Source of the DNA: a virus
Lineage: Duplodnaviria; Caudoviricetes
Length of the DNA stretch: 64,000 nt
Strand: one strand, 5' to 3'
IMG/VR virus record: IMGVR_UViG_3300032280_000442
Span: 32,001-96,000 of that record
Shown here: positions 14,669 to 55,073 of the stretch, one piece after another
Layout of the letters: every line of letters begins with the position of its first letter
Numbering within the stretch: the stretch's first letter is position 1
Translations under genes and position numbers: made by a program
Notes under the pieces: generated by a model
What the model saw: the letters and a program-made list of their open reading frames with translations, nothing else
The model's database searches: none
Told to the model about the DNA's origin: nothing

Positions 14669-15274
14669 ATGTCTAAAAGAATAATTATATCTGAAGAAGA
14701 AAAAAACGAAATAAAATCGTTATATAATATTAATGAACAAGGAGCTGGTGACATTCTTAAAGGGTTAGCCGATACAATTGTAAATATGATTAAAACAGGT
14801 AAGTTTGGAACTAATTCATCCGATTTAACTGATTTAGTTGATTCTGATAATCTACCAAATAAAACAACATCGGATGACGATTTTTATAAATCAATCTTAA
14901 AATGTTTAGGTGCGGAACCAACTAAGAGTAATATGTTATTTATGTATGCTTGGAGACAAGCCGAGGGAGGTAGTGCAAAAAATAACCCATTTAACACCAC
15001 AATGAAAATGGAAGGTGCCACCAATTATAATAATGTTGGTGTTAAAAATTATCAAACATCTGAAGATGGTATTGAAGCAACTTGCAAAACTCTTAAAAAT
15101 GGTAGAGACAAATATGGTTACGATAAAATTATTGATGGATTAAAAAATGATGTCGGGTTGTCTAAATTATCCGATGCTGTGGTTAATTCAAAATGGGGAA
15201 CTAAAGATTTATTATCTAGAATTACCAAAGATTATATTGCAGGAATAACCCCAAAACCTAAAGACATTGCGTAA
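14669..15274 (+). CDS. leader-bearing lysozyme-fold (muramidase/transglycosylase-like) protein
   Basis: leader MSKRIIISEEEK...INE; AWRQAEGG..NNPFNTT...VKNY....DGIEAT. Confidence 0.6.
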   Translation: MSKRIIISEEEKNEIKSLYNINEQGAGDILKGLADTIVNMIKTGKFGTNSSDLTDLVDSDNLPNKTTSDDDFYKSILKCLGAEPTKSNMLFMYAWRQAEGGSAKNNPFNTTMKMEGATNYNNVGVKNYQTSEDGIEATCKTLKNGRDKYGYDKIIDGLKNDVGLSKLSDAVVNSKWGTKDLLSRITKDYIAGITPKPKDIA

Positions 15275-15303
15275 AACAACAAAACCGACATCAGTCGGTT
15301 TTT

Positions 15304-15657
15304 TTATTGTATTATACTCAATAAGACATAACTTAACTTGTATCCCACAAACGCACCTAACGCCGACGGTATCGGGAATACAATTAATTTACCCAAGTCA
15401 GTCACATATTTTGGTCGGTTCACAATCTTACCCACAAAGAAGTAATATATTAGATATCCCAATAAAACTGCAATATCTGTCCGTGTTGCAATAAAAACAA
15501 CTAATGTGGCTCCCAAGAACCCAAAGATAAAATTATCTCTCACACCTTCCCAAATCTCTTTATTTGACGCACTTTCGTACTCCTTAACTATTTTCTTAAT
15601 TTTTACTTTATTCTTCTTAAAGTAATTATTCTCCGATTCCATATTTTGTCTTTCCAT
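15304..15657 (-). CDS. three-TM membrane protein
   Basis: three hydrophobic segments. Confidence 0.6.
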   Translation of the reverse strand: MERQNMESENNYFKKNKVKIKKIVKEYESASNKEIWEGVRDNFIFGFLGATLVVFIATRTDIAVLLGYLIYYFFVGKIVNRPKYVTDLGKLIVFPIPSALGAFVGYKLSYVLLSIIQ

Positions 15658-15814
15658 CTAATGTTTCTGCTTTAATTGTCTTCTCATTCATAAATGTTAA
15701 TTCTAATTGAGTACTGGCGATTAAATATTCTTCAACCATTTCCCAACTCATTAAATCTTTCATAAAAAACGTATGTAACGTTCTCATTATTTCAAATTCT
15801 GTTGCTTCGTTCAT
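15626..15814 (-). CDS. hypothetical protein
   Basis: overlap-coupled ORF. Confidence 0.45.
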   Translation of the reverse strand: MNEATEFEIMRTLHTFFMKDLMSWEMVEEYLIASTQLELTFMNEKTIKAETLDGKTKYGIGE

Positions 15815-16077
15815 ATTGTTTGTTTATCTTTACCTTCGTATAAGGTCGCTATGTTAATTTTTCCCTCAGTTTGCGCAAATTGTTCTAAAAAATTAAGTCG
15901 GACTTGTTTATTTAGTTCTAATAAATTCATTTCATCCAACTCTGTTGTTGTGAATTGTTCGTTTGATAATTCACATAGGTAAAAATGATGGGTCACATCA
16001 TAGGTCTTCCCTTTATAATCTAATGTGGATTGTTCCGACATTAATTTCATTTCTTTTCCGCTTAATGGACTTTTCAT
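15811..16077 (-). CDS. MqsA/YgiT-type antitoxin N-terminal-domain-like protein, lacking HTH
   Basis: MKSPLSGKEM...FYLCELSNEQFTTTELDE resembles, from memory, the N-terminus of Bacteroidota MqsA-family antitoxins. Confidence 0.6.
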   Translation of the reverse strand: MKSPLSGKEMKLMSEQSTLDYKGKTYDVTHHFYLCELSNEQFTTTELDEMNLLELNKQVRLNFLEQFAQTEGKINIATLYEGKDKQTI

Positions 16078-16079
16078 AT

Positions 16080-16265
16080 CTAATTTAATATCCAATTAAT
16101 TAACGCATTCATTTGATATTGTTCTTCTCTTATTCTGATATGATTTTGAATATTTTCAACAGTGATACCACTGTAGGTATTTGGATTTTTGACCATATCA
16201 TCTAAATCTTCGGTATGTTTCAACATTTCTTCGTATTTTTCTCTAATTTCTTTTTCTGTTTTCAT
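16080..16265 (-). CDS. hypothetical protein
   Basis: MKTEKEI...ALINWILN; coupled ORF. Confidence 0.5.
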   Translation of the reverse strand: MKTEKEIREKYEEMLKHTEDLDDMVKNPNTYSGITVENIQNHIRIREEQYQMNALINWILN

Positions 16266-18363: not shown

Positions 18364-18401
18364 ATTCTCTTTTATTATAAATATGGTGATGGGTATAAAA
18401 A

Positions 18402-18722: not shown

Positions 18723-18755
18723 AAATCCCATATACTTTTTCTTTTTCGTTTTATT

Positions 18756-21965: not shown

Positions 21966-22700
21966 ATGAATTACGGAAAAGAGTTTCAAAAATTCGCAAT
22001 AGGTGATAGAGGTATCTCAGGACTTAACTTGGATTACTACCAAAAACACATCGAGAGTGTAACTCCATACATTTTGGAAGAAAGAGAGATGAGAGCAACT
22101 CAACTTGATATTTTCTCCCGACTTATGATGGACCGAATTATTTGGGTTTCCGGACCGGTTGAGAGTCAGATGGCATCTATCATCCAAGCTCAACTTATCT
22201 TCTTGGAAACCACCGATAAAAAAGATATCAGTATGTATCTTGACACTCCGGGAGGTTCGGTATTAAGCGGACTTGGAATCAGAGATACAATGAACTACAT
22301 CAAACCGGATGTTGCAACATTGAATGTTGGGATGTGTGCGTCAATGGGTTCAGTATTAGTATCTTCGGGAGCAAAAGGAAAAAGAAGTTCATTAATCTTT
22401 TCAAAAATTATGACACATATGGTGTCTCACGGAACTCAAGGAAATGTTCAAGACACTCGTATCAATCAATTAGAAGCTGAGAAGTATAACTATATGTTAT
22501 TCAAAATCTTGGCAGAGAATTGTGGAAAAACATTTGACGAAATGTATGAGTCGTCAAGAAATGACAAATGGTTCAACTCAGATGAGGCAAAAACATTTGG
22601 TTTAATTGATAACATCGTTGGATTAGAGACAAACAAATCTATGACAGAGATGATGGTTGGGTTTGATGAGTTCTACTCTAAAGAAATATTAAAACGATAA
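21966..22700 (+). CDS. clpP: ATP-dependent Clp protease proteolytic subunit
   Basis: DIFSRLMMDRII, IQAQLIFLE, TPGGSV, GMCASMG (Ser), IMTH (His), RNDKW (Asp). Confidence 0.93.
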   Translation: MNYGKEFQKFAIGDRGISGLNLDYYQKHIESVTPYILEEREMRATQLDIFSRLMMDRIIWVSGPVESQMASIIQAQLIFLETTDKKDISMYLDTPGGSVLSGLGIRDTMNYIKPDVATLNVGMCASMGSVLVSSGAKGKRSSLIFSKIMTHMVSHGTQGNVQDTRINQLEAEKYNYMLFKILAENCGKTFDEMYESSRNDKWFNSDEAKTFGLIDNIVGLETNKSMTEMMVGFDEFYSKEILKR

Positions 22701-23981: not shown

Positions 23982-25100
23982 CTATTGTTGGGGGTTTTTG
24001 TCTTTTATTAGGGAATATAATTTACTTAATTTTTTTGTCATCTTAAGACAAATATTTCTTGTTTGATTAATCTCGTATCTAAAGAATCTTTCATAGTCAC
24101 CACCAAATCTTGTAATTTTACTAAGATATTTATCGTAGTATCTTTCTTTAGCCCCTTTAAAACCAAATAATTCTTCCATAAAGTTATCCACCAAAAACTC
24201 TTTCATATTTCCGGCTTTCCATTGCAATAATGTTTTGAAGAATTGTAATAATGTTAAATCAACCATATCATCATCAGATATGTTCTCTGGGTAATCAATA
24301 TTATTATCGTCGAATGTTTGTTTAATTTGAGGAATGATTAACTTTAAATCTTCTCTTAATTTTTCATAACTTAAGTTAGCCCCTTTTTTATAATTCTCAT
24401 AAACTTTATGATTCGTTATAAATTTGTAAAAATCCTTTTTTGTAATCCCACTCTCTTCCAATGCCGCATACAACTCAGTCGCCCTAACCAAGTTTTCAGT
24501 TGTGTGAGCAAAATACATATAACTCAATAATTCATTCAATGGTGGTATATTACCAAATCTTCTCTGAGAACCAATTTTATAATCAACTCTTTTGTGTGTT
24601 TTAACTATTGGGTCAACAGATTCATCATAAGCGTGTTTTAATTCGTGAGCCAAACTTGAAACCATTAGAGTTCTTTCTTTCTTAAACTCATCAATCACCT
24701 CTTGAGTTGTTACATCTTTATCAATCGCAAAACTAATTGATAATTCAACTTTATTCATATTTTGGTTTACCTCATAATTGAACTTAGCATTCATCTTAAC
24801 TTTACCGTGATGAGTCATCGCGTGCAATAAAATTCTAGGTAATTCCCCGTCCGGATTAGTATAATCATTTATGTCATCAACACTAAACGACACCTTAATT
24901 GTCTTAAACTTATAATCATTAATTTGGAAGTCACCCTTTAATGTAATTTTCTTTTTTATAAAAGAATTGATATTATCATTAGGGTTTAGACTTGATATGA
25001 TTTTGTCATATAGTTCTTGGGCAACTTCAACGATGTTAGTTGGGACACCAACCGCTTCGTTTAATTTTGTATATTGAGATTCTTTAATTTTAATTTTCAT
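23982..25100 (-). CDS. leader-bearing HExxH metallopeptidase-like protein
   Basis: leader MKIKIKESQY..LNE; LAHELKHAY; TATTTAT-N4-ATG. Confidence 0.65.
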   Translation of the reverse strand: MKIKIKESQYTKLNEAVGVPTNIVEVAQELYDKIISSLNPNDNINSFIKKKITLKGDFQINDYKFKTIKVSFSVDDINDYTNPDGELPRILLHAMTHHGKVKMNAKFNYEVNQNMNKVELSISFAIDKDVTTQEVIDEFKKERTLMVSSLAHELKHAYDESVDPIVKTHKRVDYKIGSQRRFGNIPPLNELLSYMYFAHTTENLVRATELYAALEESGITKKDFYKFITNHKVYENYKKGANLSYEKLREDLKLIIPQIKQTFDDNNIDYPENISDDDMVDLTLLQFFKTLLQWKAGNMKEFLVDNFMEELFGFKGAKERYYDKYLSKITRFGGDYERFFRYEINQTRNICLKMTKKLSKLYSLIKDKNPQQ

Positions 25101-26020: not shown

Positions 26021-26413
26021 TTAATTTCCTACAGTCTTAACCGGTACGTGGAATTTATCCCAAAACCAATCAATAAATGGTTGTTTCCATTTATCACCAA
26101 AATAACCATTTAATGTTGTATAAACAGTATCATCGTAAATAACCAATTGTGGTGATTTAGTTATAGCATCCTTACGAAGTTCCTCACCCCATTGTTCACC
26201 TTCATCACTAGTCCAATAATCTTCACCATACCATCTGAATACGGTATTATCACCTTCTTCGTAATCTCCTTCATAAAATTCAATTGCGTAGTCCACTTCA
26301 TTACCAAAATCATCAATACCTGGCGTCCAACCAATGTTATTGGTGTCGTAGGTATCGTTCAGGTAGTCAATTACCGCTTGATTTAATTTACTCTCAGTTA
26401 TTATTATTTTCAT
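26021..26413 (-). CDS. leader-bearing protein, W(F/V)xx(K/T)(F/Y) paralog family
   Basis: MKIIITESKL; FIDWFWDKFHVPV. Confidence 0.7.
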   Translation of the reverse strand: MKIIITESKLNQAVIDYLNDTYDTNNIGWTPGIDDFGNEVDYAIEFYEGDYEEGDNTVFRWYGEDYWTSDEGEQWGEELRKDAITKSPQLVIYDDTVYTTLNGYFGDKWKQPFIDWFWDKFHVPVKTVGN

Positions 26414-26414
26414 A

Positions 26415-26777
26415 TTATCTAATTCCGTGTTTTACACTATCCGCATCTTGTTTATAAGTTTCATTAAACCATTTTAATAGTGGTTCATCAAAATTACCAA
26501 AATAACTTGACAATTCCTGAGACAATTTCCAATCCACATATAATCTAACTCCGGGATATGCCGGTCTTGTGTTGCCACCTTTCTCCCAAAAAACCGGACC
26601 ACCACTAACAACGTGAAATAATACGTCATTAGTTTTTGGGTCAAAATATTTATAACCGTGACCAAAAGACATACTTTTAGTCGGTCGTCTTTTTAACCTA
26701 CCCATCTCAGGAAACTTACCCTCGATAAAAGTTTGGATAATATTTTTTCGTTGTTCTTCGGTTATTATAATTTTCAT
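26415..26777 (-). CDS. leader-bearing protein, same paralog family
   Basis: start moved to MKIIITEEQ with TATTTAT-N4; LLKWFNETY. Confidence 0.7.
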   Translation of the reverse strand: MKIIITEEQRKNIIQTFIEGKFPEMGRLKRRPTKSMSFGHGYKYFDPKTNDVLFHVVSGGPVFWEKGGNTRPAYPGVRLYVDWKLSQELSSYFGNFDEPLLKWFNETYKQDADSVKHGIR

Positions 26778-32478: not shown

Positions 32479-32512
32479 TTTAATTGTTTAATATAAATAT
32501 GTGGTTATTCTG

Positions 32513-32833: not shown

Positions 32834-32840
32834 TTAGACG

Positions 32841-33523: not shown

Positions 33524-33524
33524 A

Positions 33525-41464: not shown

Positions 41465-42049
41465 TTAGTATTTTTGTGTAATATATTGTGATATAAACTC
41501 TTTGATTACATCCCATTTTTCATCAGGTAATTCACTATACACAAAATAATCCCCGTGTAAATCTTCATCAACCAAACTAATTAGTTTATCTAAATATTTT
41601 TGTTTTGTTTCATAATATTCGGGATGTAAGTGTTTGATAAATTTGTTAATGGATTTATCTATTAGGTACGTTCTCCGTCTTATGTCATTTAAGTTCATTA
41701 AGAACGATGACTCTTCCCTTAATATTCTTCTTATGGATTCTTGTAAGTTCATATTTGTAAGTTCATCATACTTTTTAATTATTCTTTCCCCGAATATTTC
41801 TTGTATAAACTTATATAAACCTTCTTCCGGTATAGGTGAATCTTCCACCCACCCATCGGTTAATTGCACAAGTATTTCCTCAGTAATTGAACTCACAACA
41901 ATAACCATAAATTTATTCGATGACATATTGGCATAATGTTTGAAGTTCCTTGATTGATTATTTAATTTTTGGTTAAAAATACTCTCAAGTTCATCAATAC
42001 TATATCTTCTTAAGATATATCTCTTTATGTTATTCTTTTGTAAGTTCAT
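41465..42049 (-). CDS. fusion of two leader-bearing units
   Basis: MNLQKNNIKRYILRR plus an internal in-frame MNLQESIRRILREE at 41752. Confidence 0.65.
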   Translation of the reverse strand: MNLQKNNIKRYILRRYSIDELESIFNQKLNNQSRNFKHYANMSSNKFMVIVVSSITEEILVQLTDGWVEDSPIPEEGLYKFIQEIFGERIIKKYDELTNMNLQESIRRILREESSFLMNLNDIRRRTYLIDKSINKFIKHLHPEYYETKQKYLDKLISLVDEDLHGDYFVYSELPDEKWDVIKEFISQYITQKY

Positions 42050-43316: not shown

Positions 43317-43751
43317 ATGAAAATAGTAATCACCGAAAATAAAATGTATAACCTTCTTAATAAATCCCTCGAACATTTGTTTGACGGGTTTAATGATGTC
43401 GATTATACTTGGGCCGACTTTAACTGTGGTTGGGGTGTATGTTGTGATATATATGCCGTTGGTTTTACACTTCCCGGTAGTGAACACGATGACTACCTAT
43501 TTAAACTAATTGATAGTGAGAACTATGATAATAACGGTGACTATGGTGAAGAACTTACCGGCGAGTTACCTGAGATATGTATGGAACATCCCGATATTAC
43601 CAACCCCCAATTTGATACCATTATCTTTTATGAACTATTTGTGGAAGAACTTGAGAATTACTTAGGACCAATACGTAATTGGGGTACTGAGTTGTTAGGT
43701 CTGTTAAACACTAAGTTCGGTATGAATGCTAAGAAAATAATATTCATATGA
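43317..43751 (+). CDS. leader-bearing acidic Cys-containing protein
   Basis: start moved to MKIVITENK; TATTTAT 6 nt upstream. Confidence 0.7.
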   Translation: MKIVITENKMYNLLNKSLEHLFDGFNDVDYTWADFNCGWGVCCDIYAVGFTLPGSEHDDYLFKLIDSENYDNNGDYGEELTGELPEICMEHPDITNPQFDTIIFYELFVEELENYLGPIRNWGTELLGLLNTKFGMNAKKIIFI

Positions 43752-44071
43752 GAATAATAATTACAGAGAATAAAAGAAACAAAGCCATAACCAAATGGTT
43801 AGATGAGAACTACGGTGACTTAGAAAAGTATTCTGCTCCGGGTAGTTTTAGATACATCGTCTACAGAGATAATAATGGTGGGAATGTTTTTAATTTTAAT
43901 CGTAACACCGGTATAGTTACAATAGTTAATGAAATTTTGTATCAAGATTTAAAACATATGTTTGGTCTTAACGGATATGAATTAAATGATATCTTTATTC
44001 CTTGGATTATGGAAAGATATAATGTACACGCTGAGAAAGTTCAATACGCCGAGTTTACCCACCTGTTTTAA
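43748..44071 (+). CDS. leader-bearing W(F/V) family protein
   Basis: MRIIITENKR; MFGL...FIPWIMERY. Confidence 0.7.
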   Translation: MRIIITENKRNKAITKWLDENYGDLEKYSAPGSFRYIVYRDNNGGNVFNFNRNTGIVTIVNEILYQDLKHMFGLNGYELNDIFIPWIMERYNVHAEKVQYAEFTHLF

Positions 44072-44123: not shown

Positions 44124-44190
44124 AAAATAGTGAAGGATGAAACTATGAGTGAATTCCGGAGTGGAACGTAGGACTATGAACGAATGGTTT
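44124..44190 (+). repeat. hairpin repeat family R2, copy 2
   Basis: near-identical to 41392-41459. Confidence 0.85.
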
Positions 44191-44668
44191 AATCGTTGAC
44201 TATTTTACTTAACATTAAATGAAAAATCTTATCCACTATACTATGACTTAAATTTTCATATTTTATGTTAAAACTACCAAGATAAAAGTCATCATAATCA
44301 TAATCATAACCACTTATTTCTTTAGTATATCTTTCTACGACAATATATTCAGGTCTATAATATTCTATTAGTTGTTTTTCCTCGTAAGTTTCATCATACA
44401 CTATTGAACCTCCCCACGAAAATCCGGGACCACCAACCTCAACATCGTCATACTCTTCACAAAGTTTTGTTACAATATCTTTAATGAATTGAATCTTTTC
44501 TTCTTTGGTGAATTCATAATCCCCCATCATTTGTTTGAGTTTGTTATATCCCCCAAAATAACGAATGGTATCATATATACCCATATCGTTAATTAAGTTA
44601 GCAACTTTGTTCTCTTTGATAACCCCCATCATTTGGTGGATTCTATGTATGTTCTCTTGTAAGTTCAT
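44189..44668 (-). CDS. MNLQE-leader protein
   Basis: MNLQENIHRIHQMMGVIKE. Confidence 0.7.
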   Translation of the reverse strand: MNLQENIHRIHQMMGVIKENKVANLINDMGIYDTIRYFGGYNKLKQMMGDYEFTKEEKIQFIKDIVTKLCEEYDDVEVGGPGFSWGGSIVYDETYEEKQLIEYYRPEYIVVERYTKEISGYDYDYDDFYLGSFNIKYENLSHSIVDKIFHLMLSKIVND

Positions 44669-45132
44669 ATTGAATAAAATATATCATCCGGTCTGTTACT
44701 TTTAGTTGTTTTAATTCCGTTATTTAATAAAATTATTTTAACAAAACTCCCGCAATTCACAGCTCTTTTATTTTTAATATTACAAACAATTTCATTTGGA
44801 ACTTCAACTACCTTAGGTAATTTAACTTCATCGTAAAGACCTTGTTCTTTCGCATCCAATTTTGATTTTGACATATTAAATAATTCTTCAGTATCTTCAA
44901 ATCTATATTTAATTGGTGGTAAAGGTTTTACTCCGTCTTTAGTATATCTATGACCACTCATATCTTTCATAGTCCCATCTGTAAGAACAAATCCTATATG
45001 GTCATAATCCCAACCTTTTGGACAATATGGTGATTTCATAACAAATAAAGTATCAGATAAATCCTTATCTTTACTTTCTTTAATAATCCCCATCATTGAT
45101 TGGATTCTATGTATGTTCTCTTGTAAGTTCAT
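44665..45132 (-). CDS. MNLQE-leader permuted papain/NlpC-P60-like protein
   Basis: YDHIGFV (His) before NCGSFV (Cys). Confidence 0.55.
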   Translation of the reverse strand: MNLQENIHRIQSMMGIIKESKDKDLSDTLFVMKSPYCPKGWDYDHIGFVLTDGTMKDMSGHRYTKDGVKPLPPIKYRFEDTEELFNMSKSKLDAKEQGLYDEVKLPKVVEVPNEIVCNIKNKRAVNCGSFVKIILLNNGIKTTKSNRPDDIFYSI

Positions 45133-45133
45133 A

Positions 45134-45541
45134 TTAATTAATATGTTTGAATACTTTTCTAATGTGTTTCGGTAATGAATTTATTGGTATTACCTTTGCT
45201 TTGATTGTTTCTAATCCTTGTCTTGCAGCTTTCTGAGCTCTGTGGTGTCCGTCTATAATTGTTATGAATTTACCATCATCGTTAACAAAGATTAGTATTG
45301 GGTATTGTAAATCAGCACTTTCTATCTTTCTAACCTCATCTTCATCCCCATCCCACGATAGTAAATGTGGCTTTAATTCTTCTACTGAGATATTTTTTAC
45401 CGGAATGTTTTCTGTAGCATTTAATAAATCCATAAGGGTGATTTTATCCCCCTCATTATTTTGCCAAGATGTGTCGTGTAATCCTTCATTGATTACCCCC
45501 ATCATCTGTTTAATTCTATGTATGTTTTCTTGTAAGTTCAT
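45134..45541 (-). CDS. MNLQE-leader ParB/Srx N-terminal domain protein
   Basis: ADLQYPIL...IIDGHHR..KA. Confidence 0.75.
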   Translation of the reverse strand: MNLQENIHRIKQMMGVINEGLHDTSWQNNEGDKITLMDLLNATENIPVKNISVEELKPHLLSWDGDEDEVRKIESADLQYPILIFVNDDGKFITIIDGHHRAQKAARQGLETIKAKVIPINSLPKHIRKVFKHIN

Positions 45542-45542
45542 A

Positions 45543-45956
45543 TTAATAACTTTCTCCTGTCCCTTTATAAATTAGTTTAATACAATCCGATGGTATAGTG
45601 TTGAAAGTTACAATATGTTTTTGGTAGTCACCATCATCAAAATGTCTATCTTTATACCACTCAACCTCCGCACATTCCGTATCTATAATCCAAATGTCAT
45701 CATCATAGGTTGAATCAAACATATCTTCTTTTGTTACAGAATCTGTTGCGAATATGGCTTCTTTACAAGGAGTATCACCGCCAACAAATTGTCTATAACA
45801 ATCACCAACTGATGTTTGTAATCCCATTTGTTTTATGTCTTTCCTCCACATAGGATTTGATTTGTGAGCAACATATTTTCCCGGTTCGTATTTCATACCC
45901 GATGGAGAATATATCTCTTCATTCACAATTCGTATTATGGTGTTAATTAATTTCAT
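45543..45956 (-). CDS. leader-bearing ADP-ribosyltransferase/Tpt1-fold candidate
   Basis: HKS......I...GL, AIFAT, IW.ID, IP..CI. Confidence 0.5.
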   Translation of the reverse strand: MKLINTIIRIVNEEIYSPSGMKYEPGKYVAHKSNPMWRKDIKQMGLQTSVGDCYRQFVGGDTPCKEAIFATDSVTKEDMFDSTYDDDIWIIDTECAEVEWYKDRHFDDGDYQKHIVTFNTIPSDCIKLIYKGTGESY

Positions 45957-45959
45957 ATC

Positions 45960-46697
45960 TTAGTGATTTAATAATATCTCAACCAACTCCTCAATTATTT
46001 GTACCGGTAAACTTTCATACTTAGCATAATAGTCCCTTAAATGACTACTAAACTCAGTTTCATATATACTAATGTCTACACTTGTTCGACCTAACCATTC
46101 TATTTGATGTTCCTCCCCATCTTCATCACTATAATGAAGTGGGTCTTCATTTATCTCGTGTAAACCAACACCACTACCATCATCACTTAATTCTCTAACT
46201 TTCTCTTTGATAAAATTAACCTTATCAATAACTTTTAAGTATGGCTCAATTTTATAGTAATTCCCAAAATACTTAATGGCGTCAGAAACACCCAAAGTTT
46301 TAATCATATCAGAAATACTATTATCTTTATCCTCTTTTATAATATCATCACAACTCTTTACGTGTTTGGTAAACATCTCTAATTTCTGTCCGGTGTAGTT
46401 ATATATTAAATCCCACGCTTCATTCATTAAATCATCAAACATACGTCTTACTGATTGTGTCGCTGGCCAATTATCACTCCCATACCCACCAATTAAATAA
46501 AAATCAACCCTGTAGTTATTGTAGGGATATTCCTGATGCGGTAGTTTGGTTCTATTGTCAGGATGTTTAACCTCAACCTTACAAACAACGTCTTTGTGGT
46601 CTTTAACAAACCCATCTAATAATGTTTGAATTACCGAAGTTAAATCTTTTTTAGATTCTTCTACTAATATACTCTTTATGGTTCCTATTAATTTCAT
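45960..46697 (-). CDS. leader-bearing two-domain protein
   Basis: MKLIGTIKSILVEE; second domain after DDIIKE resembles 44189..44668. Confidence 0.65.
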   Translation of the reverse strand: MKLIGTIKSILVEESKKDLTSVIQTLLDGFVKDHKDVVCKVEVKHPDNRTKLPHQEYPYNNYRVDFYLIGGYGSDNWPATQSVRRMFDDLMNEAWDLIYNYTGQKLEMFTKHVKSCDDIIKEDKDNSISDMIKTLGVSDAIKYFGNYYKIEPYLKVIDKVNFIKEKVRELSDDGSGVGLHEINEDPLHYSDEDGEEHQIEWLGRTSVDISIYETEFSSHLRDYYAKYESLPVQIIEELVEILLNH

Positions 46698-47470
46698 TAC
46701 TTATCTTCAGGTAATTTAGTATCTTTGATAAATTTCTTGTGTGAATCCTTATACGATTTTTGGGTTTCATCGTTCACATCTTTGGTGTATTGCCAATTCC
46801 AATACAAGTCATTGTTTGGTTTGAATCCATAAAACTTATGAACATCTTTCTGTATTTCAGTTACATTCTCACCGTTCCAATTCTGTCCAACACAAATGAA
46901 TCCGGTCTCAATATCTTTAACAAGATTTGATTCACCCAATGTTGTATGTCTGTTCTCAATCCAAGTCAATCTCTCAATTAAGTTTTGGTAGAACATATTG
47001 GTTTGTCCCCATCTTATGGAACTAAAGAATATAACTGCGTCAGATTCAAATAACTCTTTGGATATCTTCCATAACTCATCCTTTGGATTGTTATAACTTG
47101 CCCAACATCTATGGTCTCCGGATGGATTCTTTTTCTTATCTTTGAGCATTGCTTTAAGTAACCCACAACTGTTACCGTCTTTTCTTGATACATTTCCTTC
47201 ACAAGGAACGATATTAAGTTCAGAGACATCAATAAGTACTGAAGTATCTTTTAACTCATCGTTAAGATACATTGCAATCATCTTTGATTTTGGTATGTCA
47301 AGGTTTTTTTCATCCCAATTATATCTATTGGAACAACTTAAGATTAGAACCTTTTTCTTTTCTTTAAGAATATCTAATGTTTTCTTAATTGATTTCCACG
47401 CATCTGATTGGACCATCTCTTCCGAAATCATCATTTCTCTTATTCTTTGTATATTTTCTTGTAAGTTCAT
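46697..47470 (-). CDS. MNLQE-leader flavodoxin-like (NADPH-dependent FMN reductase family) protein
   Basis: VLILSCSNR, IVPCEGNVS, ESDAVIFFSSIRWG, Q.LIERL. Confidence 0.7.
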   Translation of the reverse strand: MNLQENIQRIREMMISEEMVQSDAWKSIKKTLDILKEKKKVLILSCSNRYNWDEKNLDIPKSKMIAMYLNDELKDTSVLIDVSELNIVPCEGNVSRKDGNSCGLLKAMLKDKKKNPSGDHRCWASYNNPKDELWKISKELFESDAVIFFSSIRWGQTNMFYQNLIERLTWIENRHTTLGESNLVKDIETGFICVGQNWNGENVTEIQKDVHKFYGFKPNNDLYWNWQYTKDVNDETQKSYKDSHKKFIKDTKLPEDK

Positions 47471-48069
47471 TATTTTGTTTTTTTAACACAATTAGGGTAT
47501 TTCTTACCAAACATTGTCTTCATACCTTTTTGAGTATATCCCGCCCAACATTTTTCCGTAAGTTCCTCCTCCTTCATTTCATTTTTTTTATGTTTACCAT
47601 CACAATGAGCTTTCTGACTAAATCCTTTTGGGTTATTACAGTTAATAGATTTTTTGTACTTTTCTGACCACTTTTCCGTAAACTCACCTTCTTTCATTTC
47701 TTGAGTTTTCTTTTTTGATTCTTCTTTTTTAGATTCAATATACTCAAATGCAGTTCTTAATCTTTTTTTAACTTCAGGGTCTTTTGCTCTTTCTAACGCA
47801 ACTCTCAATCTTTGATGTATAAGATTAATGATTTGTGATTGTCTGGCGTGTGATTTTGATTTGAAACTTTCTTTATTCAAAGTATCAACAATATCTTGTT
47901 TTGTTTTAAACTTAACGGAAACCGTATCATTTGGATTTTCATCGGTATATAACCTTCTATCCGAACCTTCAGGTTTTTTACCAGTCCCAACCTTTAGGTC
48001 ACTCTCATTAATCACTCTTTTAACTAATGAAATAAGTTCTGATTCTGTTAGTCTTATTATTTTTTTCAT
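47470..48069 (-). CDS. leader-bearing multi-module basic protein
   Basis: MKKIIRLTESEL..VINE; modules GKKP.GS.RRLYTDENP, KWSEKYKKSINCNNPKGFSQKAHC, KCW.GY..KG.K......PNCVK. Confidence 0.7.
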   Translation of the reverse strand: MKKIIRLTESELISLVKRVINESDLKVGTGKKPEGSDRRLYTDENPNDTVSVKFKTKQDIVDTLNKESFKSKSHARQSQIINLIHQRLRVALERAKDPEVKKRLRTAFEYIESKKEESKKKTQEMKEGEFTEKWSEKYKKSINCNNPKGFSQKAHCDGKHKKNEMKEEELTEKCWAGYTQKGMKTMFGKKYPNCVKKTK

Positions 48070-48070
48070 A

Positions 48071-48472
48071 TTACCTATTATATGGTCTAAACCTTGCTGG
48101 GTTTGCTTTTATTGCCGACTTTGGAAATCTTAATCCAACTCCCTGTTGTCTTGCATTTTTTAATGTTCTTGCGTATTCTGTTAATTCTTCACTATCAATA
48201 TTATCAATAGATTTTACTAATTTATGACATTTATCAGATACACCACCCTTTTCGTGGTCGGTTATGGATATTTTTACTTTATCATAATTTATTTCAATGT
48301 CCGGATGATGGTTTTGTGTTTCAGCAATTTTCGCAATTTTATTAACAAAATCAATAGCATCATTAAAATCTTTGAATTTGAAAGTTCTTTCTAATTTTTT
48401 ATTAGAATTAACCCAATTTTTTGATTCAAACATCATTTCTTTAATCCTTTGTATATCTTCTTGTAAGTTCAT
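48071..48472 (-). CDS. MNLQE-leader pterin-4-alpha-carbinolamine dehydratase
   Basis: LERTFKFKDF..A..FVNKIA..AE..NHHPDI.I.Y..V.I...DHE.GGVS. Confidence 0.85.
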   Translation of the reverse strand: MNLQEDIQRIKEMMFESKNWVNSNKKLERTFKFKDFNDAIDFVNKIAKIAETQNHHPDIEINYDKVKISITDHEKGGVSDKCHKLVKSIDNIDSEELTEYARTLKNARQQGVGLRFPKSAIKANPARFRPYNR

Positions 48473-49371: not shown

Positions 49372-49701
49372 TTAATCATAATCACCAATTAAATTAACTT
49401 CTTCAGGTTCTATTCTTAATCTATCTTTAAACCACCAACTAATAATACTCTCAAGTTCTTCATCACTAAATGAGAACAATCTTAGTGGTTCCCACATACC
49501 TTTATTAACTTCCAATAAATCATATTTTTCTGACCACCACATCAAAATGTTATCACTTTCATCTCTGAATATTATTTGTTGATTACTAAATACAGAATCT
49601 TTATTTAAATCAATATACTCACGAGTTAATTTACTCAAGATATCGTCTAATATCTTGTAGGATAATTGGTATCTTTTATTTTCTGTTATTAATATTTTCA
49701 T
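49372..49701 (-). CDS. leader-bearing W(F/V) family protein
   Basis: MKILITENKR; ISWWFKDRL. Confidence 0.7.
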   Translation of the reverse strand: MKILITENKRYQLSYKILDDILSKLTREYIDLNKDSVFSNQQIIFRDESDNILMWWSEKYDLLEVNKGMWEPLRLFSFSDEELESIISWWFKDRLRIEPEEVNLIGDYD

Positions 49702-50027
49702 AACTCATTATCTATCCACAGCTCAGAATATCTCACTATTTTATCAGTTAATTCCTCATAACATATCCCTATCATTTCCTCAAATTCTTCTTTAGATGAA
49801 ACAAAAGTTCTTAAACTCATAAAGTAATCCGGATATATAATTAATTGACCATTACTTGGTCTATATAACAATCCTGTAACCGCATTATCATCATATACCT
49901 CATCATAGTAGATATAAATAATACTTGTACCACCACCCATTCTTGTTGGAGTTAATTTATTAAACAGGGTTTTAAACTCTGTTCTAAATAACATATCTCT
50001 TTTATTTTCTGTGATTACAATTCTCAT
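49698..50027 (-). CDS. leader-bearing protein, divergent family member
   Basis: MRIVITENKR. Confidence 0.7.
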   Translation of the reverse strand: MRIVITENKRDMLFRTEFKTLFNKLTPTRMGGGTSIIYIYYDEVYDDNAVTGLLYRPSNGQLIIYPDYFMSLRTFVSSKEEFEEMIGICYEELTDKIVRYSELWIDNEL

Positions 50028-50029
50028 AC

Positions 50030-50329
50030 TTACATCATTTTATATTCAATACCCCAATGTGAACCTGACATATCAATATCTAAACCAAACATACGATTAA
50101 CATCAGCTCTAATTTCTCTTAATGTACGTGTTGGACTATTCTGCATCTCACCACCTTTAAACCCAACATTAATGATGTTTCTATTTATTGTTCTTCGCTC
50201 ACTTTTATCACCACTTGCTAAATAAACATCCTTTGTTGTAAATGTTACATTTTTAACTACATCATAACCATTGAGGATATAGTCCTCAATTAACTTATTA
50301 TACTTACTTTCTGTTATTAATACTTTCAT
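50030..50329 (-). CDS. leader-bearing protein
   Basis: MKVLITESKY. Confidence 0.7.
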   Translation of the reverse strand: MKVLITESKYNKLIEDYILNGYDVVKNVTFTTKDVYLASGDKSERRTINRNIINVGFKGGEMQNSPTRTLREIRADVNRMFGLDIDMSGSHWGIEYKMM

Positions 50330-50721
50330 TATATGTAATCTGTTGTAAATTGAGTAACTTCTAATCCGGTATTATCTTCAAACCATTTTTTGAATATTGG
50401 TTTCCATATGTCACCAAAAGTAGAATCTAATCTTTTAGCGACAACAGGATAAACAGATAGTAAAGGACATTTATAATTGTGTAGATAACCGTAACCTGCA
50501 AAAAATTCATCTTCCGGACCAGCGTTTGCATTACATCCATAATAAATGTAAGATTCTTGGTCATCAACAAAGAAAACAATATCACCCCACTTATCAACCT
50601 CATCTTGATAACCAATATCTGATTTACTATTACCTTTCCACCCATAATCAGGATAATATAAATCATCCAAATAATCGATAACGACTTTCTCTAATCTACT
50701 CTCAGTTATTACTACTTTCAT
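50329..50721 (-). CDS. leader-bearing W(F/V) family protein
   Basis: MKVVITESRL; FGDIWKPIFKKWFEDNTGLEV, close to 26021..26413. Confidence 0.7.
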   Translation of the reverse strand: MKVVITESRLEKVVIDYLDDLYYPDYGWKGNSKSDIGYQDEVDKWGDIVFFVDDQESYIYYGCNANAGPEDEFFAGYGYLHNYKCPLLSVYPVVAKRLDSTFGDIWKPIFKKWFEDNTGLEVTQFTTDYI

Positions 50722-51323
50722 TAGTTTCCTATTCCGTTATTTCGTGAGTTATAAACACTTCTGTATTTACTTTTTAGTTCATTATCAGGTAACTTTTCTA
50801 AATCATTTCTTTTATGTAATGTTTGGTTATCTAAATAATCAATCATTTCATCTCTACTTATATTATCAACGTCAATCATCTGATAACATTTACGCCAATT
50901 GTCAAAAGTTAGTGTTTCATCAATTTCTAATTCAGGATGACCCGTTTCTTGACCAAACTTGGTTGTGTATTTATCATCATACCATTCGGTAATTATATTA
51001 AGTATAAACGCCTTTCTAACCTGTAATATTTTAGCTAAAAACTCAACTTCTTTCTCATCAACATATAAATCACCAGCAAAAAACTTTTCTTCATCACTAT
51101 CCTCATCATTAAAAAAATATTTTGCCTCCATAACAATATTGTTACCTTTACACCACTCTTCACTATAATTTCCATAATTATCTTCAGGTGGTGGGATGAC
51201 TCTTTTTGAATCGGAGATTAAACTCTCCATATGTTTAATAATAACACGTTCTAAGTTCGGATTAGATTTTTGAAATTTCTTTTGAACTTCCTCTCGTAAT
51301 ATCTTTTTAATTAATTCTTTCAT
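50721..51323 (-). CDS. MKELIKK-leader protein
   Basis: MKELIKKILREE. Confidence 0.7.
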   Translation of the reverse strand: MKELIKKILREEVQKKFQKSNPNLERVIIKHMESLISDSKRVIPPPEDNYGNYSEEWCKGNNIVMEAKYFFNDEDSDEEKFFAGDLYVDEKEVEFLAKILQVRKAFILNIITEWYDDKYTTKFGQETGHPELEIDETLTFDNWRKCYQMIDVDNISRDEMIDYLDNQTLHKRNDLEKLPDNELKSKYRSVYNSRNNGIGN

Positions 51324-51670
51324 TATTTACCACTCTTAATTATTAATTCACCAAGAACTTCAATTAACCCAACCAATTTTTGGAACTGTTCCTGTCCCAT
51401 ATTAACATCTTCGGATAAACCACATAGTTTATCAAGGTGTTCTTTAAATTCGACTTTAGATTCTTTGATATCAAACTTTCCTTCGGAAGCTTTCTTGTAG
51501 TAAGGTAATTTTACAACAAAATGGTAATATGTTAACATTGACGCACCACCTTTTTCTTTTGCATTCTCAGTAATCTTTGATGCACCATCAAATCTTTTTT
51601 GAGCAAACTCTTCAAACTTAGTTTGTTTTTCCTCTTCTTCTCTTAACAATTTTTTAATTAACTCTTTCAT
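51323..51670 (-). CDS. MKELIKK-leader protein
   Basis: MKELIKKLLREE. Confidence 0.7.
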   Translation of the reverse strand: MKELIKKLLREEEEKQTKFEEFAQKRFDGASKITENAKEKGGASMLTYYHFVVKLPYYKKASEGKFDIKESKVEFKEHLDKLCGLSEDVNMGQEQFQKLVGLIEVLGELIIKSGK

Positions 51671-52182
51671 ATCATAAATTCACCTAATTTTATTTTTTCA
51701 ATTATCTGTTTAAATATTTGTTGTCTATATTTTTTTCCCAACGTATTTCTTTGTGTTAAAAACCCATAACCAAACCCGGAATCCCCTGACATCCCAACAA
51801 CTTTCCAACTAATAGGTAACCCATATGTATTACTAAGTTTAAATAAACGAGCATTAAAAGAATATCGTAAACTATTTTTATTACCAAACGAAAATTTCCC
51901 TAATTCTTTTTCTTTAGAATTCACATCTTTTAAATTTAATAGTTGAACTAATAAATCATCTAAAATCAGATTGTTACCATCGTTAGCAAATCTAACTAAT
52001 TGAATTCCCTCATTTTCCGCATATTTTTTAAGGTCACCACCATACATTATATTAACATAATTTTTCATCCCACCAACAAAATTAGCCGCTTGACCAATCC
52101 CAACAGAATTACTTAAATCTCGTAACTTTTGTTGATTTGAAGTCAATTCTTCTCTCAATACTTTTTTTATTAACTCTTTCAT
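51667..52182 (-). CDS. MKELIKK-leader protein
   Basis: MKELIKKVLREE. Confidence 0.7.
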   Translation of the reverse strand: MKELIKKVLREELTSNQQKLRDLSNSVGIGQAANFVGGMKNYVNIMYGGDLKKYAENEGIQLVRFANDGNNLILDDLLVQLLNLKDVNSKEKELGKFSFGNKNSLRYSFNARLFKLSNTYGLPISWKVVGMSGDSGFGYGFLTQRNTLGKKYRQQIFKQIIEKIKLGEFMI

Positions 52183-52183
52183 C

Positions 52184-52513
52184 TTAATTTAACACTTCTT
52201 TATTTACGTGTTGAACAATCTTAACCGGTAACTCAAAAAATTCTGAGAACCACTCACCAACAACATCTTTAACTTGTTTTGGTGTATAACTTAACATTTT
52301 AATCGGACGAATAACATCTTCACAGATATATAACGATTCCGCACCACTACCATAAATCATAACAACACCTTCACCATTACGATATTCAATACGCATCTTT
52401 TCCCCCATTGAATCAGTGTAATAATTTACATCCTCATACATACCGGAGAACTCATCGGTCAATAACTGTTTGGCTAATCTGTCTCGTTTATCTTCCTTAA
52501 TCACAATCTTCAT
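52184..52513 (-). CDS. leader-bearing W(F/V) family protein
   Basis: start moved to MKIVIKEDKR with TATTTAT-N4; VGEWFSEFFELPV. Confidence 0.7.
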   Translation of the reverse strand: MKIVIKEDKRDRLAKQLLTDEFSGMYEDVNYYTDSMGEKMRIEYRNGEGVVMIYGSGAESLYICEDVIRPIKMLSYTPKQVKDVVGEWFSEFFELPVKIVQHVNKEVLN

Positions 52514-52547
52514 AATAATAAATATCTTATAAATTAAAAACCCCCAA

Positions 52548-53066
52548 TTAATCTTGGGGGTCATCTAAATATTCGTCTTCATACTTTCTAATCGAAACAG
52601 GTTTATCATATTCACCAATGGTTTCTAATTTATTTTTTAACACATCAATCTCCTTTTGAGTATATACCGGAGCAAAAGATGGTCTTAAATGGAATGGGAC
52701 ATTATCTCTATCCTCCCACTTTTTTAGTTCTTGTTCCGTAGATTTAATCAAATCCATTAAACTTTTGGATTCTTTCCATTTATCATAATCCTCAACAGAT
52801 TTAATATAATTAACCTCACCATAGTTACTAATCTTAGCATCCGGATTGGTTGTATATACATCCACGATACCATCGTAACCATCGTACTCAATACACAAAT
52901 CATTAACAGAAAGTTCGTTGGTTAATACATTCTTCCATCTATTACCGTACGACCTAATTTCACAAATATAAATGAATCCATCATTCATATCGTGTAAGTA
53001 ATGACCTATGCTGTTTTGAAGTTCTCTTAATTCTTCTACCGAGTATTTTGTAAAATCCATTTCCAT
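52548..53066 (-). CDS. hypothetical protein
   Basis: TACTTTTG-N4-ATG. Confidence 0.6.
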   Translation of the reverse strand: MEMDFTKYSVEELRELQNSIGHYLHDMNDGFIYICEIRSYGNRWKNVLTNELSVNDLCIEYDGYDGIVDVYTTNPDAKISNYGEVNYIKSVEDYDKWKESKSLMDLIKSTEQELKKWEDRDNVPFHLRPSFAPVYTQKEIDVLKNKLETIGEYDKPVSIRKYEDEYLDDPQD

Positions 53067-53117
53067 TTGACAAAAGTAAGCATAAAAAAAGGAAGTAACA
53101 AATACCTCCTTAATTTT

Positions 53118-54698
53118 TTATTTCTTTTTTTGTATAGCCTCATTCAGTGTCTTGAGAACCTTATTGACCGATTCTTGGACTGCATTAGGTTGGGGTAAAT
53201 TATTCACAGCACAATATTGAGCAACCGGTAATTGAATATTAACATTAAATATTCTACTTAACGCTGATTCAAGTTTAGTAATACCTCCGGTATCACAACC
53301 ATATACTTTAAGTACTTTTTCAATAAATCTTTGAGGGTCTTTTCTTATATTTTGAATAATAGCAGGATTAATATTTTGACCCCTCTTACCAAATAGTCCT
53401 TTAATACCACCTTCTCTACCTACATCAGAAGTTTTTGATTTTAAAACAAATAATTCTTTACGTTTAATATCACCGTAATGTTTTAATTTTTTAATTAATA
53501 ATTCATCATCATCGGTTCTTCTAGGTCTTTCAGATAAAGTATACAAATCCCTTTTAATCGCCTCATTAATTTTTTCTAATTTTAATATTGGGTCTATTGT
53601 TATTTTTCTATTATTATTGTCTCTCAAAACAATTTGTTCAAAATGATAACTTACTTCACCATTTAAATATTTTCTAAAGATATTAGCAACGTGAGTTTCT
53701 TCACCATTAACTGTTTTCCAAATTCTTAACGACAATGTTGGTTCATTAATAAAATTTGTTGGTATTGCAGTTTTTTCTGAATCATATTTATGTCGATTTG
53801 CTTTAACATATTGAGGAAATTGAATCTTAATCATTATAGGATTAATCCCTCCTAAATTTTTAACAATAATAGCATTTTTATTAAAACCAAAATTTTTAAC
53901 ATTAGACACCATATGGTTAATTATATCGTTTTTGGTATATTGATAAACAAGTATTTCATTAAGAGTTGCATAATTTGAAAACATAAAATAATCTATTGGA
54001 CCAAAAGTATTAACTCTATTTAATAATTCTGACACAAAATCATAACCTATATTATTTTCTTTAAAAGCGTCATCAGTTAATAACATATTAAACACTTTAT
54101 TTATATTACCTCCACTGATAGTTGTAATATTATTCTGTAATAATATTTCCCTAACACCTGTTTGGTCTTCTTTAAATTGAGCTTGAGCTCCTTGAACAAC
54201 ACCTCCTAAAGTTTGACTCTTATTTCGGTCAAATTTTTCAGCAAACTTAATTGAAATACTATCATTACCAATTACCGCCTCAGTTGCCGGGTCTTTTACT
54301 TCAACATCAACATCACTTTTATTAGCAGTTCCTTCGGCATTCACCACAGTACCACCAAAAATACCACCAATTAACCCTTCAAAACTTTTACCTCTACTAG
54401 TAACTGAATCCGGAGATTCAATAACATCCATATACCATTGAACAAATCTTTGTTGGGATTCAACTTTATTTACCACTTTTTTATCAACACCCGGCAATTT
54501 TATAGTAGCCGCTTGACCTACCTGAAGAAAATCAATATTATAACTCTTCAAAGCCAATTTCATCGCCTCACAAGTTGCTGTTGGAGAAGTATTAAATGGA
54601 GCTATTTTAGAAATAGCTAATGAATAATCTGATTCAATGTCTTCAGACAACATTAACCTACTATATTGTGATTCACTTATGTGTATATTAAATTTCAT
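53118..54698 (-). CDS. leader-bearing large protein, PD-(D/E)xK-like N-terminal region
   Basis: MKFNIHISESQY..LSE; RGKSFEGLI...G.....D.....SISIKF. Confidence 0.55.
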   Translation of the reverse strand: MKFNIHISESQYSRLMLSEDIESDYSLAISKIAPFNTSPTATCEAMKLALKSYNIDFLQVGQAATIKLPGVDKKVVNKVESQQRFVQWYMDVIESPDSVTSRGKSFEGLIGGIFGGTVVNAEGTANKSDVDVEVKDPATEAVIGNDSISIKFAEKFDRNKSQTLGGVVQGAQAQFKEDQTGVREILLQNNITTISGGNINKVFNMLLTDDAFKENNIGYDFVSELLNRVNTFGPIDYFMFSNYATLNEILVYQYTKNDIINHMVSNVKNFGFNKNAIIVKNLGGINPIMIKIQFPQYVKANRHKYDSEKTAIPTNFINEPTLSLRIWKTVNGEETHVANIFRKYLNGEVSYHFEQIVLRDNNNRKITIDPILKLEKINEAIKRDLYTLSERPRRTDDDELLIKKLKHYGDIKRKELFVLKSKTSDVGREGGIKGLFGKRGQNINPAIIQNIRKDPQRFIEKVLKVYGCDTGGITKLESALSRIFNVNIQLPVAQYCAVNNLPQPNAVQESVNKVLKTLNEAIQKKK

Positions 54699-54701
54699 TA
54701 T

Positions 54702-55073
54702 TTATTTTTTATTAAATTGTTCATTGTTCATATATTTTATGGTTTGTACTTCCCCATAATTTCTTTTTTTAAATCTATCAGTATACACGTTAAAAACTCG
54801 TTTAATGATATCATCTTTAATTAAATCATAAAACTTATGTGAACCAACAAATTTACTAATCAAATCATAAAACTTCTCATCATTTACCACCGCTAAATTA
54901 ATATCAGGGTAATATCTTGAAATAATATTTTGTCGGGTTCCAGGTGTAAGAAATTCTATATAACGTGTTTCTATACTTCTTGATTGAAAAGAATCATACT
55001 TGTCAACATCAAGACCATCAAAGACAATATCTTTCAATAAATTTAATCTATCCTCACTAATCTTAATTTCCAT
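54702..55073 (-). CDS. leader-bearing protein
   Basis: MEIKISEDRL; TATTTAT-N4. Confidence 0.65.
   Translation of the reverse strand: MEIKISEDRLNLLKDIVFDGLDVDKYDSFQSRSIETRYIEFLTPGTRQNIISRYYPDINLAVVNDEKFYDLISKFVGSHKFYDLIKDDIIKRVFNVYTDRFKKRNYGEVQTIKYMNNEQFNKK

Follow-up and report, generated by a model that had tools for sequence, protein, structure and literature searches.

Exchangeable N-terminal leaders on unrelated genes of a ~300-kb T4-like phage: candidate capsid-targeting propeptides

Why should some 50 genes of one phage, many of them encoding unrelated proteins, begin with one or another of a few short peptides? The question is raised by a 64,000-nucleotide stretch of a Caudoviricetes genome (bases 32001-96000 of IMG/VR record IMGVR_UViG_3300032280_000442), hereafter the window, in which a first-pass annotation found three kinds of N-terminal leader shared among diverse genes and proposed that they load enzymes into the phage head. 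We find that the leaders are conserved as peptides, that orthologous proteins exchange them at an exact joint, and that the joint follows the hydrophobic-x-Glu form used by T4-type prohead proteases. The reading we favour, at a probability of roughly 0.6, is that they are clade-specific capsid-targeting propeptides of the kind borne by the internal proteins (IPs) and Alt of phage T4. Coordinates are those of the window unless prefixed G000, the complete record; features are collected in Table 1, and a slash within a sequence marks the end of a leader or propeptide.

All 36 starts in the annotation's list are ATG codons followed by the N-termini reported for them, in open reading frames (ORFs) of 95-526 aa; 31 are on the minus strand and three (14669, 43317, 43748) on the plus strand. 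Regular-expression scans of the full record (308,574 bp, direct terminal repeats, 31.5% G+C, 393 ORFs in a crude gene call) enlarge the phenomenon to ~52 leader genes, or 13% of ORFs. The window holds 35 of them between 14.7 and 55.1 kb, and the others are dispersed (e.g. G000 3304, 18238, 101160, 109108, 201300 and 287929-291326).

Shared leaders are thus real, while their number rises from three to at least seven classes: A (27 genes; M-K-[IY]-[IL]-I-T-E-[SN]-[QK]), A2 (6; MKKIIRLTESDLxRIVKRVIxE), B (6; MNLQENI[QH]RI[KR]xMMG..), C (4; MKELIKKxLREE), C2 (3; MKLIxTIxxIVxEE) and, added here, D (4; ..IISEEEKxRILxxH) and E (2; ..IxNIKYLxGYKxGxVISEQ). The border between B and C is not sharp, as MNLQESIRRILREE hybrids bridge both. 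Copies described as divergent (54698, 55073, 25100 and 42049) are indeed so. Two starts had to be reassigned: 14669, listed as type A, begins MSKRIIISEEEK and belongs to class D, and 41752, listed as a separate gene, is an in-frame internal leader of ORF 41465-42049. With the patterns reversed, none of five genomes had a match, where the true patterns give 5-20 (A) and 1-6 (B); because of these controls, and because cellular genomes are nearly free of leaders, their frequency is far above chance. Sec/Tat and lipoprotein signal peptides were considered and ruled out: the leaders are charged and amphipathic (MNLQENIQRIKEMMG, MKELIKKILREE), with no h-region of at least 10 residues, and the true signal peptides of the same genome (MKKLLLLFAVLL..) form a group apart.

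The leaders are virus-specific and restricted to a clade of ~300-kb T4-like phages. Degenerate DNA patterns located at least 118 B and at least 120 A loci in IMG/VR; across 185,579 cellular genomes the B pattern had no match and the A pattern four, three of them on 3-4-kb contigs of metagenome-assembled genomes. CheckV completeness of the leader-bearing viral contigs scales with length as expected for ~300-kb genomes. Four complete relatives carry 5-16 A-pattern and 1-4 B-pattern starts, compared with 19 and 6 here. By major capsid protein (MCP) the nearest cultured relatives are Flavobacterium phages (vB_FspM_immuto, 41% identity). Chen et al. (2022, PMC9723584) published a clade of Bacteroidetes phages from fresh water, ~290-331 kb in size, which is alike by general description only. 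GenBank phages gave no match to 20 kb of the window by megablast, nor to short leaders and two large leader proteins by tblastn, and a search for loci related to P0381 returned none. In the limited literature covered, we found no description of this clade's leaders.

Selection acts on the leader peptide, not on its DNA. Over 99 distinct B-leader contexts synonymous codons are used freely (Leu3 TTA 52/CTA 46, Glu5 GAA 59/GAG 40, Arg9 AGA 52/AGG 46), Gly15 is GGG, GGA or GGT, and the 30 bases 5' of the leader are A+T-rich and otherwise unconserved; among window leaders the Ser codon alternates between TCA and AGT. Conservation is equal on genes inside operons, which have no promoter of their own. 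These observations count against the view that the shared N-termini serve expression (as initiation context of leaderless or Shine-Dalgarno-less mRNAs) or mobility (as a recombination boundary) and that the peptide is a by-product. That view could draw on the promoter-like motif ATATTTAT, which stands just 4-6 nt ahead of the ATG in many leader genes that head an operon, on codon skew at some positions (N2 AAC 85%, I7 ATA 97%) and on chimeric, duplicated joints that reveal recombination at leaders, as in relative L042 below. But the same leaderless geometry occurs at non-leader genes, and recombination accounts for the spread of leaders, not for their maintenance. We regard it as very unlikely.

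That the leaders are portable, as first proposed, is directly visible in natural swaps, in which orthologous cargo stands behind different leaders and the joint always falls directly after Glu. In this genome ..MMGVINE/ (B) stands before the ParB-like cargo, GLHDTSW.. (45134-45541); in relative L031 its place is taken by MKKIIRLTESELILLVKRVINE (A2, ending ..LVKRVINE/) and in relative L044 by MNIIISESQYNKLFEYKTIRLQKE (A-like, ending ..KTIRLQKE/). The FMN-reductase-like cargo has a B or an E leader; the cargo of 32841-33161, class A here, has a B leader in relative L077; that of 36226-37356, also A here, has the C-like leader MRQIIKKILKEE on its orthologue in relative L055; and the ART-like cargo (45543-45956) occurs with C2, C, B and hybrid leaders. 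Phages of 343-373 kb form a sister clade that likewise has an S77-like protease domain; there the ART-like cargo follows MKHIELFEKFISE..HLVQ (MKHIELFEKF..) or MRYIKLYESF..HLVE, and unrelated neighbour genes start MKHIKLFEAF, MKHIKLFEEH and MKTIKTFESF. These sister-clade leaders are similar to MKTFKEF.. of T4 IPI. A chimera in relative L042 (1743-2342, plus strand) runs from a B leader through the opening 9 residues of the ParB-like cargo into the PCD gene's C-terminal tail, then ..EEQTE and at last the ParB-like cargo in full; the duplicated leader-cargo joint indicates that recombination acts at such joints.

The variety behind a single leader is large. A 30-column profile of the B leader, run against 1.84 billion representatives, finds it heading at least 458 clusters (50% identity), at residue 1 in nearly all of them, and 91 distinct B-leader proteins fall into at least 47 BLAST-unrelated cargo families among the matches listed. 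Could the leaders nevertheless be no functional tags at all but what descent from one ancestor has left in a single large family of paralogues? Class A does include true paralogues, alike for 20-30 residues beyond the leader (MKxIITESRLxxxxIxYLxD..), but the number of B cargo families, the recognisable unrelated folds behind the leader (PCD, ART, FMN reductase) and the different leaders on one orthologous cargo leave this explanation hardly credible. At the other end of the proteins, a Cys-containing module, E(L/F)TEKCWxGYTQKGMKTMFGKxYPNCVKKTK, forms the C-terminus of the 47470-48069 (minus strand) product and of proteins at L031, L044 and P0109; it is common to otherwise unlike leader proteins and resembles the DUF5872 region of 31071-31646, so cargo tails appear to be shuffled too.

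Every leader class contains an invariant hydrophobic-x-Glu: I5-T6-E7 in A (98% I, 98% E), L7-T8-E9 and I20-x-E22 in A2, L3-Q4-E5 plus one at the junction in B, L9-R10-E11 in C and I7-S8-E9 in D. The [ILV]-x-E noted at leader ends in the first pass is thereby sharpened, and leaders end in it exactly where orthologous cargo exchange them. The conserved block of B closes with G-[LIV]-x(0-2)-E, the hydrophobic residue always standing two before Glu whatever the spacing (GLNE, GVINE, GLLTE). An [ILVM]-x-E ending at residues 15-20 is present in 108 of 134 B-type proteins, against 17.6% of non-leader N-termini and 11-13% of internal windows. T4 propeptides read from NC_000866 have the same form (IPII/III MKTYQEFIAE/A, IPI ..STITE/A, Alt MELITE.., gp24 MAKINELLRE/S, gp22 MLKEQLIAE/A); their cleavage positions are from reviews (PMC9026906, PMC5694885) and general knowledge.

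The T4-like prohead protease on which the first-pass proposal depended is encoded in the genome. It lies in a head module that keeps the T4 order: portal, genes of 239 and 156 aa in the gp67/gp68 position, protease, an acidic 528-aa protein that is scaffold-like from position and composition only, and a gp23-like MCP that also matches T4 gp23 entries in the PDB. The MCP itself has a predicted maturation site, ..ASFLINE/ATGEG, that compares with ..GSFLTE/AEIGG of T4 gp23 (aligned by eye; T4 from NC_000866), and the segment immediately downstream was aligned to gp23 by HMMER. An S77 protease is present in eight of eight clade records of at least 90% completeness. One clade member (G067; IMG/VR, 268,739 bp, 100% complete) has two separate Peptidase_S77 matches, of 103 and 83 bits. 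Residues 37-48 of the scaffold-like protein, IKDLVKESLSEQ, resemble both the leader of class C and the tail of A2 (..VKRVLxEQ) and are the third-best internal match genome-wide; this is the only suggestive leader resemblance among head-module proteins and a lead only, on which the leaders may mimic a self-association helix of the scaffold.

The same facts can be read another way: the leaders might direct docking to, or recognition by, a different late-phase destination or partner (tail or baseplate lumen, a membrane site, a chaperone, an undiscovered modifying enzyme), with Glu the end of a binding helix and not a cleavage site. The tags are clearly portable and address-like, several cargo look metabolic, and one protein, described below, has the motifs internally and C-terminally, all of which would suit such tags. 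Yet the hydrophobic-x-Glu is held at the joint despite shifts in spacing, which looks more like P3 and P1 of a protease motif than like the end of a helix, the same motif stands at the predicted MCP maturation site, and the T4 capsid-targeting sequence (CTS) is a known precedent of exactly this anatomy. As for a modifying enzyme, a radical-SAM/SPASM recognition tag was tried and rejected: at E <= 0.01 the complete genome yields no PF04055 match, and 14 of 14 control genomes do. We think another destination unlikely.

Timing points in the same direction as the head module. The motif [AT]TATTTAT (ATATTTAT) occurs in 75 of 173 upstream gaps, where 4.4 would be expected; a second enriched upstream motif, TAnnTTTG, we take to be the -7 element of the established Bacteroidetes sigma-A consensus. 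Genes preceded by ATATTTAT include the tail sheath (PF17482/PF04984), scaffold, protease and the 239-aa core-position gene, which suggests that the motif is late. Of the 52 leader genes, 44 have ATATTTAT alone as their nearest motif upstream, 4 have both motifs, 1 has TAnnTTTG and 3 have neither. Set against TAnnTTTG, ATATTTAT thus leads by 44:1 among leader genes, compared with 170:84 among the rest (Fisher p = 2.9e-6); when only genes with a motif of their own are counted, the split is 19:0 and 57:37 (p = 3e-4). Non-leader genes interspersed in the same region have TAnnTTTG (e.g. 52548-53066 and 31701-31961). The short ATATTTAT-ATG spacing, often straight after a G+C-rich terminator hairpin (25101-25112, 33945-33956, 48473-48484, 52514-52525), implies leaderless or near-leaderless mRNAs; the gene at 23982..25100, for instance, heads its operon behind a terminator and ATATTTAT. 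A second spacing class of 13-20 nt with an A-rich spacer lies upstream of most structural genes. Ten putative late proteins compared with PHROGs and Pfam gave nothing informative.

The promoters also bear on whether the leaders are N-degron-like tags for degradation or stability, read by a phage ClpP with a host unfoldase and limiting the lifetime of late proteins. The phage has a bona fide ClpP (PF00574, 4.8e-52), and class A, with Met, a basic residue and three hydrophobic residues, is superficially like what is reportedly N-motif 2 of E. coli ClpX substrates. But the ClpP operon has the host-type, early motif while leader genes have ATATTTAT; a phage ClpX was not found (best TIGR00382 match 13.3 bits), although a host ClpX may be available; four or more very unlike leaders exchangeable on one cargo make a single degron unlikely; and the near-invariant 14-residue B leader is much more specific than known degrons. 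A degron is therefore highly improbable.

What the leaders carry is partly recognisable. Pfam applied to 30 leader proteins matches only PCD and DUF5872. The PCD assignment of the first pass holds (8.2e-24), its match beginning at residue 9 and so overlapping the leader. ART-like cargo is upheld by predicted fold: for the C2 protein 45543-45956, modelled by AlphaFold from 64 sequences (mean pLDDT 85.2), the top Foldseek match is the RNA 2'-phosphotransferase Tpt1/KptA (E 8.6e-5, probability 1.00), with ADP-ribosylating toxins weaker; this makes the protein an ART-superfamily enzyme, as T4 Alt is. The flavodoxin-like (FMN-reductase) and ParB-N labels are leads only. For the HExxH peptidase, HELKH is visible in 23982-25100 and Pfam has no peptidase match there. 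PDB phmmer with three cargo proteins found no match, and Foldseek with a class A 130-aa model no significant one.

The models also place the leaders. In the C2 model the leader is a detached helix (residues 3-12, pLDDT ~50) followed by a domain with pLDDT above 90; in the class A model of 50329-50721 (49 sequences, mean pLDDT 79.7) residues 1-6 are coil, residues 1-10 average pLDDT 60, and a confident helix starts at Glu7. Leaders are thus predicted to lie outside the folded domains. This disordered or detached state and the late-type promoter use agree with capsid loading.

As we picture it, a leader would be an N-terminal peptide of 7-24 residues, made of a short hydrophobic run, an amphipathic helix or both and closing with hydrophobic-x-Glu, that docks a late-made protein on the scaffolding core of the assembling prohead. 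The T4-type prohead protease would cut after the Glu and release mature cargo in the head, and the cargo would exit with the DNA at the next infection. Since such a tag is self-contained and has a fixed joint, recombination could place any gene behind it, and in this way each genome would have come to carry ~50 tagged genes, and the clade as a whole hundreds of cargo families. For the loading first proposed, the protease, junction motif and portability are found; docking to the core, cleavage, packaging and co-injection are steps that we infer.

Several points weigh against capsid targeting. Some 50 cargo species, some up to 526 aa, are far above what T4 packs, and several are of housekeeping type (PCD, FMN-reductase-like, DUF2237), of which a few injected copies seem of little use. 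Leaders A, A2, B, C and D have no similarity to the T4 CTS except for Alt MELITE against MKLIITE, though the mechanism does not need sequence identity because the docking partner is phage-specific. In A and B strong conservation runs past the first hydrophobic-x-Glu, so not every such tripeptide is a maturation site. Co-occurrence of leaders and protease is confounded by phylogeny, as all lie in a single clade. ATATTTAT precedes ~80 genes and may mark middle besides late genes. Finally, leader-like motifs stand inside and at the end of a 431-aa protein (G000 123016-124311, minus strand, locus L150): an A2-like SYRLTESEMIRLIEKIVKD at residue 197 and a B/E-like EEFERIKSLMGYNQKTQ at the extreme C-terminus. 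This pattern would suit a docking motif or a polyprotein, and not a strictly N-terminal signal; it is compatible with a polyprotein processed in the head, and in T4 both termini of Alt bear a propeptide (PMC9026906).

ORF 41465-42049, with its two leaders, may likewise be a natural polyprotein, and its fused form recurs in relative P0091. Such cases enter a bolder version of capsid targeting, in which the several leader classes form a multi-channel code that sets location, dose or ejection order of the ~50 cargo enzymes and the internal and terminal motifs mark polyproteins cut in the head. It would amount to a programmable, rapidly recombining arsenal of injected effectors taking up 13% of genes, the largest known virion-delivered effector repertoire of any phage; we hold it unlikely.

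Among known systems the nearest is the CTS of T4, which reportedly is carried by IPI, IPII, IPIII and Alt and removed by gp21; the IP loci of T-even phages are said to be polymorphic. An Asp at P1 reportedly prevents processing in T4 and leaves targeting intact. T-even internal proteins are diverse, with the CTS their only common part (PMC3012670; PMC9026906). Like the CTS, the present leaders are short N-terminal peptides on otherwise unrelated proteins and end in (L/I)-x-E; the S77 protease is homologous, and a gp23-like MCP and the T4 head-module gene order are shared; one cargo has the ART fold, as Alt has; and the cargo are diverse and turn over fast, with tagged genes away from the head module. 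Unlike T4, with four or five tagged genes and essentially one CTS plus Alt, there are ~50 tagged genes per genome, hundreds of cargo families and at least seven classes exchangeable on one cargo. The leaders are unrelated to MKTYQEFIAE, and only the sister clade's MKHIKLFE.F and MKTIKTFESF are like the IPI leader MKTFKEF.. (read from NC_000866). Some leaders here have 19-24 aa with two hydrophobic-x-Glu sites, cargo include housekeeping-type enzymes, and the system is known from sequence alone. The new elements are scale, the number of exchangeable classes, swapping at an exact joint and the promoter link, in what would be a greatly expanded variant of the T4 CTS/internal-protein system. The cultured T4-like phage immuto (MW353176; host Flavobacterium sp. 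LMO8) has three recurrent N-terminal families of its own, MKKSQLRQIIKE.., MENFDLKKFLVENKLT.. and MKKQILSEQFKRMQKLAGIITES.. (at 81481, 102250, 102836, 113144, 123311; 1803, 103762, 117587, 118588; and 25470, 111631), and one leader-family member is a 73-aa gene between portal and protease. Immuto is a usable experimental model for such leaders.

The jumbo phages phiKZ, 201phi2-1 and SPN3US reportedly have processed head and ejection proteins. In line with what is proposed here, their protease is homologous to gp21 and cuts after Glu, their heads hold tens of different proteins and their N-terminal propeptides are believed to target cargo to the prohead; the SPN3US paralogues gp53 and gp54 have an identical 15-aa N-terminus. 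Their propeptides, in contrast, are mostly long (>100 aa) and not common to unrelated proteins, the motif is (A/S/G)-x-E, only ~8-19 proteins are processed and no library of interchangeable leaders is described (for processed head proteins of giant phages, see Ali et al. 2017, PMC5694885). Encapsulin and microcompartment targeting peptides are also short, portable, terminal and often an amphipathic helix plus linker that loads diverse enzymes, and encapsulin shells have the HK97 fold; but these peptides are usually uncleaved, those of encapsulins mostly sit at the C-terminus, the shells, not being virions, inject nothing, and there is no sequence similarity to the leaders. Polymorphic toxin systems likewise combine a constant delivery module with recombining unrelated payloads and tandem alternative cargo genes, whereas their modules are whole domains tied to secretion systems and not a 7-24-residue viral peptide, and no immunity genes are evident here.

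If capsid targeting is correct, abundant freshwater Bacteroidetes phages inject dozens of enzymes, among them ART/Tpt1-like proteins, kinases, nuclease-like proteins and many unknown folds, and a tag of 10-20 residues would open a catalogue of candidate host-takeover and anti-defence effectors running to hundreds of families. It would be a natural case of plug-and-play capsid targeting with several orthogonal tags, would supply new tags for engineered phage protein delivery beyond E. coli, and would revise the picture of T4-like internal proteins as a handful of small basic proteins.

Table 1. Leader genes of the window and other features named in the text (G000, coordinates in the complete record)
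Feature	Coordinates	Strand	Remarks
Class D gene, MSKRIIISEEEKNEIKSLYN..	14669..15274	+	201 aa; ATATTTAT upstream
Phage ClpP	21966..22700	+	outside leader system; operon with host-type TAnnTTTG motif
Divergent class A gene, MKIKIKESQYTKLNE/A	23982..25100	-	372 aa; HELKH motif
Two class A genes, MKIIITESKL.. and MKIIITEEQR..	26021..26777	-	130 and 120 aa
Two class A genes, MKLIITESQY.. and MKLIITERQE..	30718..31646	-	second: C-terminal DUF5872 module
Five-gene run	32008..33944	-	A2 (MKKKIIKLTESDL) and four class A
Class A gene, MKIIITESQYDLISE/Q	34577..34864	-	95 aa
Class A gene	36226..37356	-	376 aa
Class A2 gene, MKKVIRLTESDLTNLIRRVLME/S	38844..39143	-	99 aa
Two-leader ORF	41465..42049	-	194 aa; degenerate B leader at residue 1, intact B/C hybrid (MNLQESIRRILREE) in frame at residue 100
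Two class A genes, MKIVITENKM.. and MRIIITENKR..	43317..44071	+	
Eight-leader-gene operon	44189..48472	-	single ATATTTAT at 48484
1st gene: B, PCD	48071-48472	-	
2nd gene: A2	47470-48069	-	
3rd gene: B, FMN-reductase-like	46697-47470	-	
4th gene: C2	45960-46697	-	
5th gene: C2, ART/Tpt1-like	45543-45956	-	
6th gene: B, ParB-like	45134-45541	-	
7th gene: B	44665-45132	-	
8th gene: B	44189-44668	-	
Eight-leader-gene operon	49372..52513	-	ATATTTAT at 52525; order: A (52184-52513), three C (MKELIKK.LREE), four A
Two divergent class A genes, MEIKISEDRL.. and MKFNIHISESQY..	53118..55073	-	123 and 526 aa
gp23-like MCP	G000 267233-269056		PF07068, 219.7 bits
Acidic scaffold-like protein	G000 269088-270674	-	528 aa; position and composition
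Peptidase_S77 prohead protease	G000 271066-271791		PF03420, 83.9 bits, E 1.6e-24; domain 271207-271635
Portal	G000 273313-275193		

Three further features of the window lie outside the leader set. A 629-aa protein (6412-8301, minus strand) has a signal peptide and a C-terminus, ..VVYPNPVEDLVNVRF.., like the sorting domain of the Bacteroidetes type IX secretion system, which fits a Flavobacteriia-type host. A GIY-YIG-like endonuclease ORF of 240 aa (17641-18363), with its own ATATTTAT, interrupts the thymidylate synthase gene (16716-18731, minus strand) and leaves it as two ORFs, 18402-18731 and 16716-17654; Rfam over the window had no match at gathering score, an intron at the split gene included. 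Lastly, a 683-aa protein (27883-29934, plus strand) behind TAnnTTTG consists of ~20 tandem repeats of ~33 residues with the core (D/E)x(I/V)IxNGVKET.

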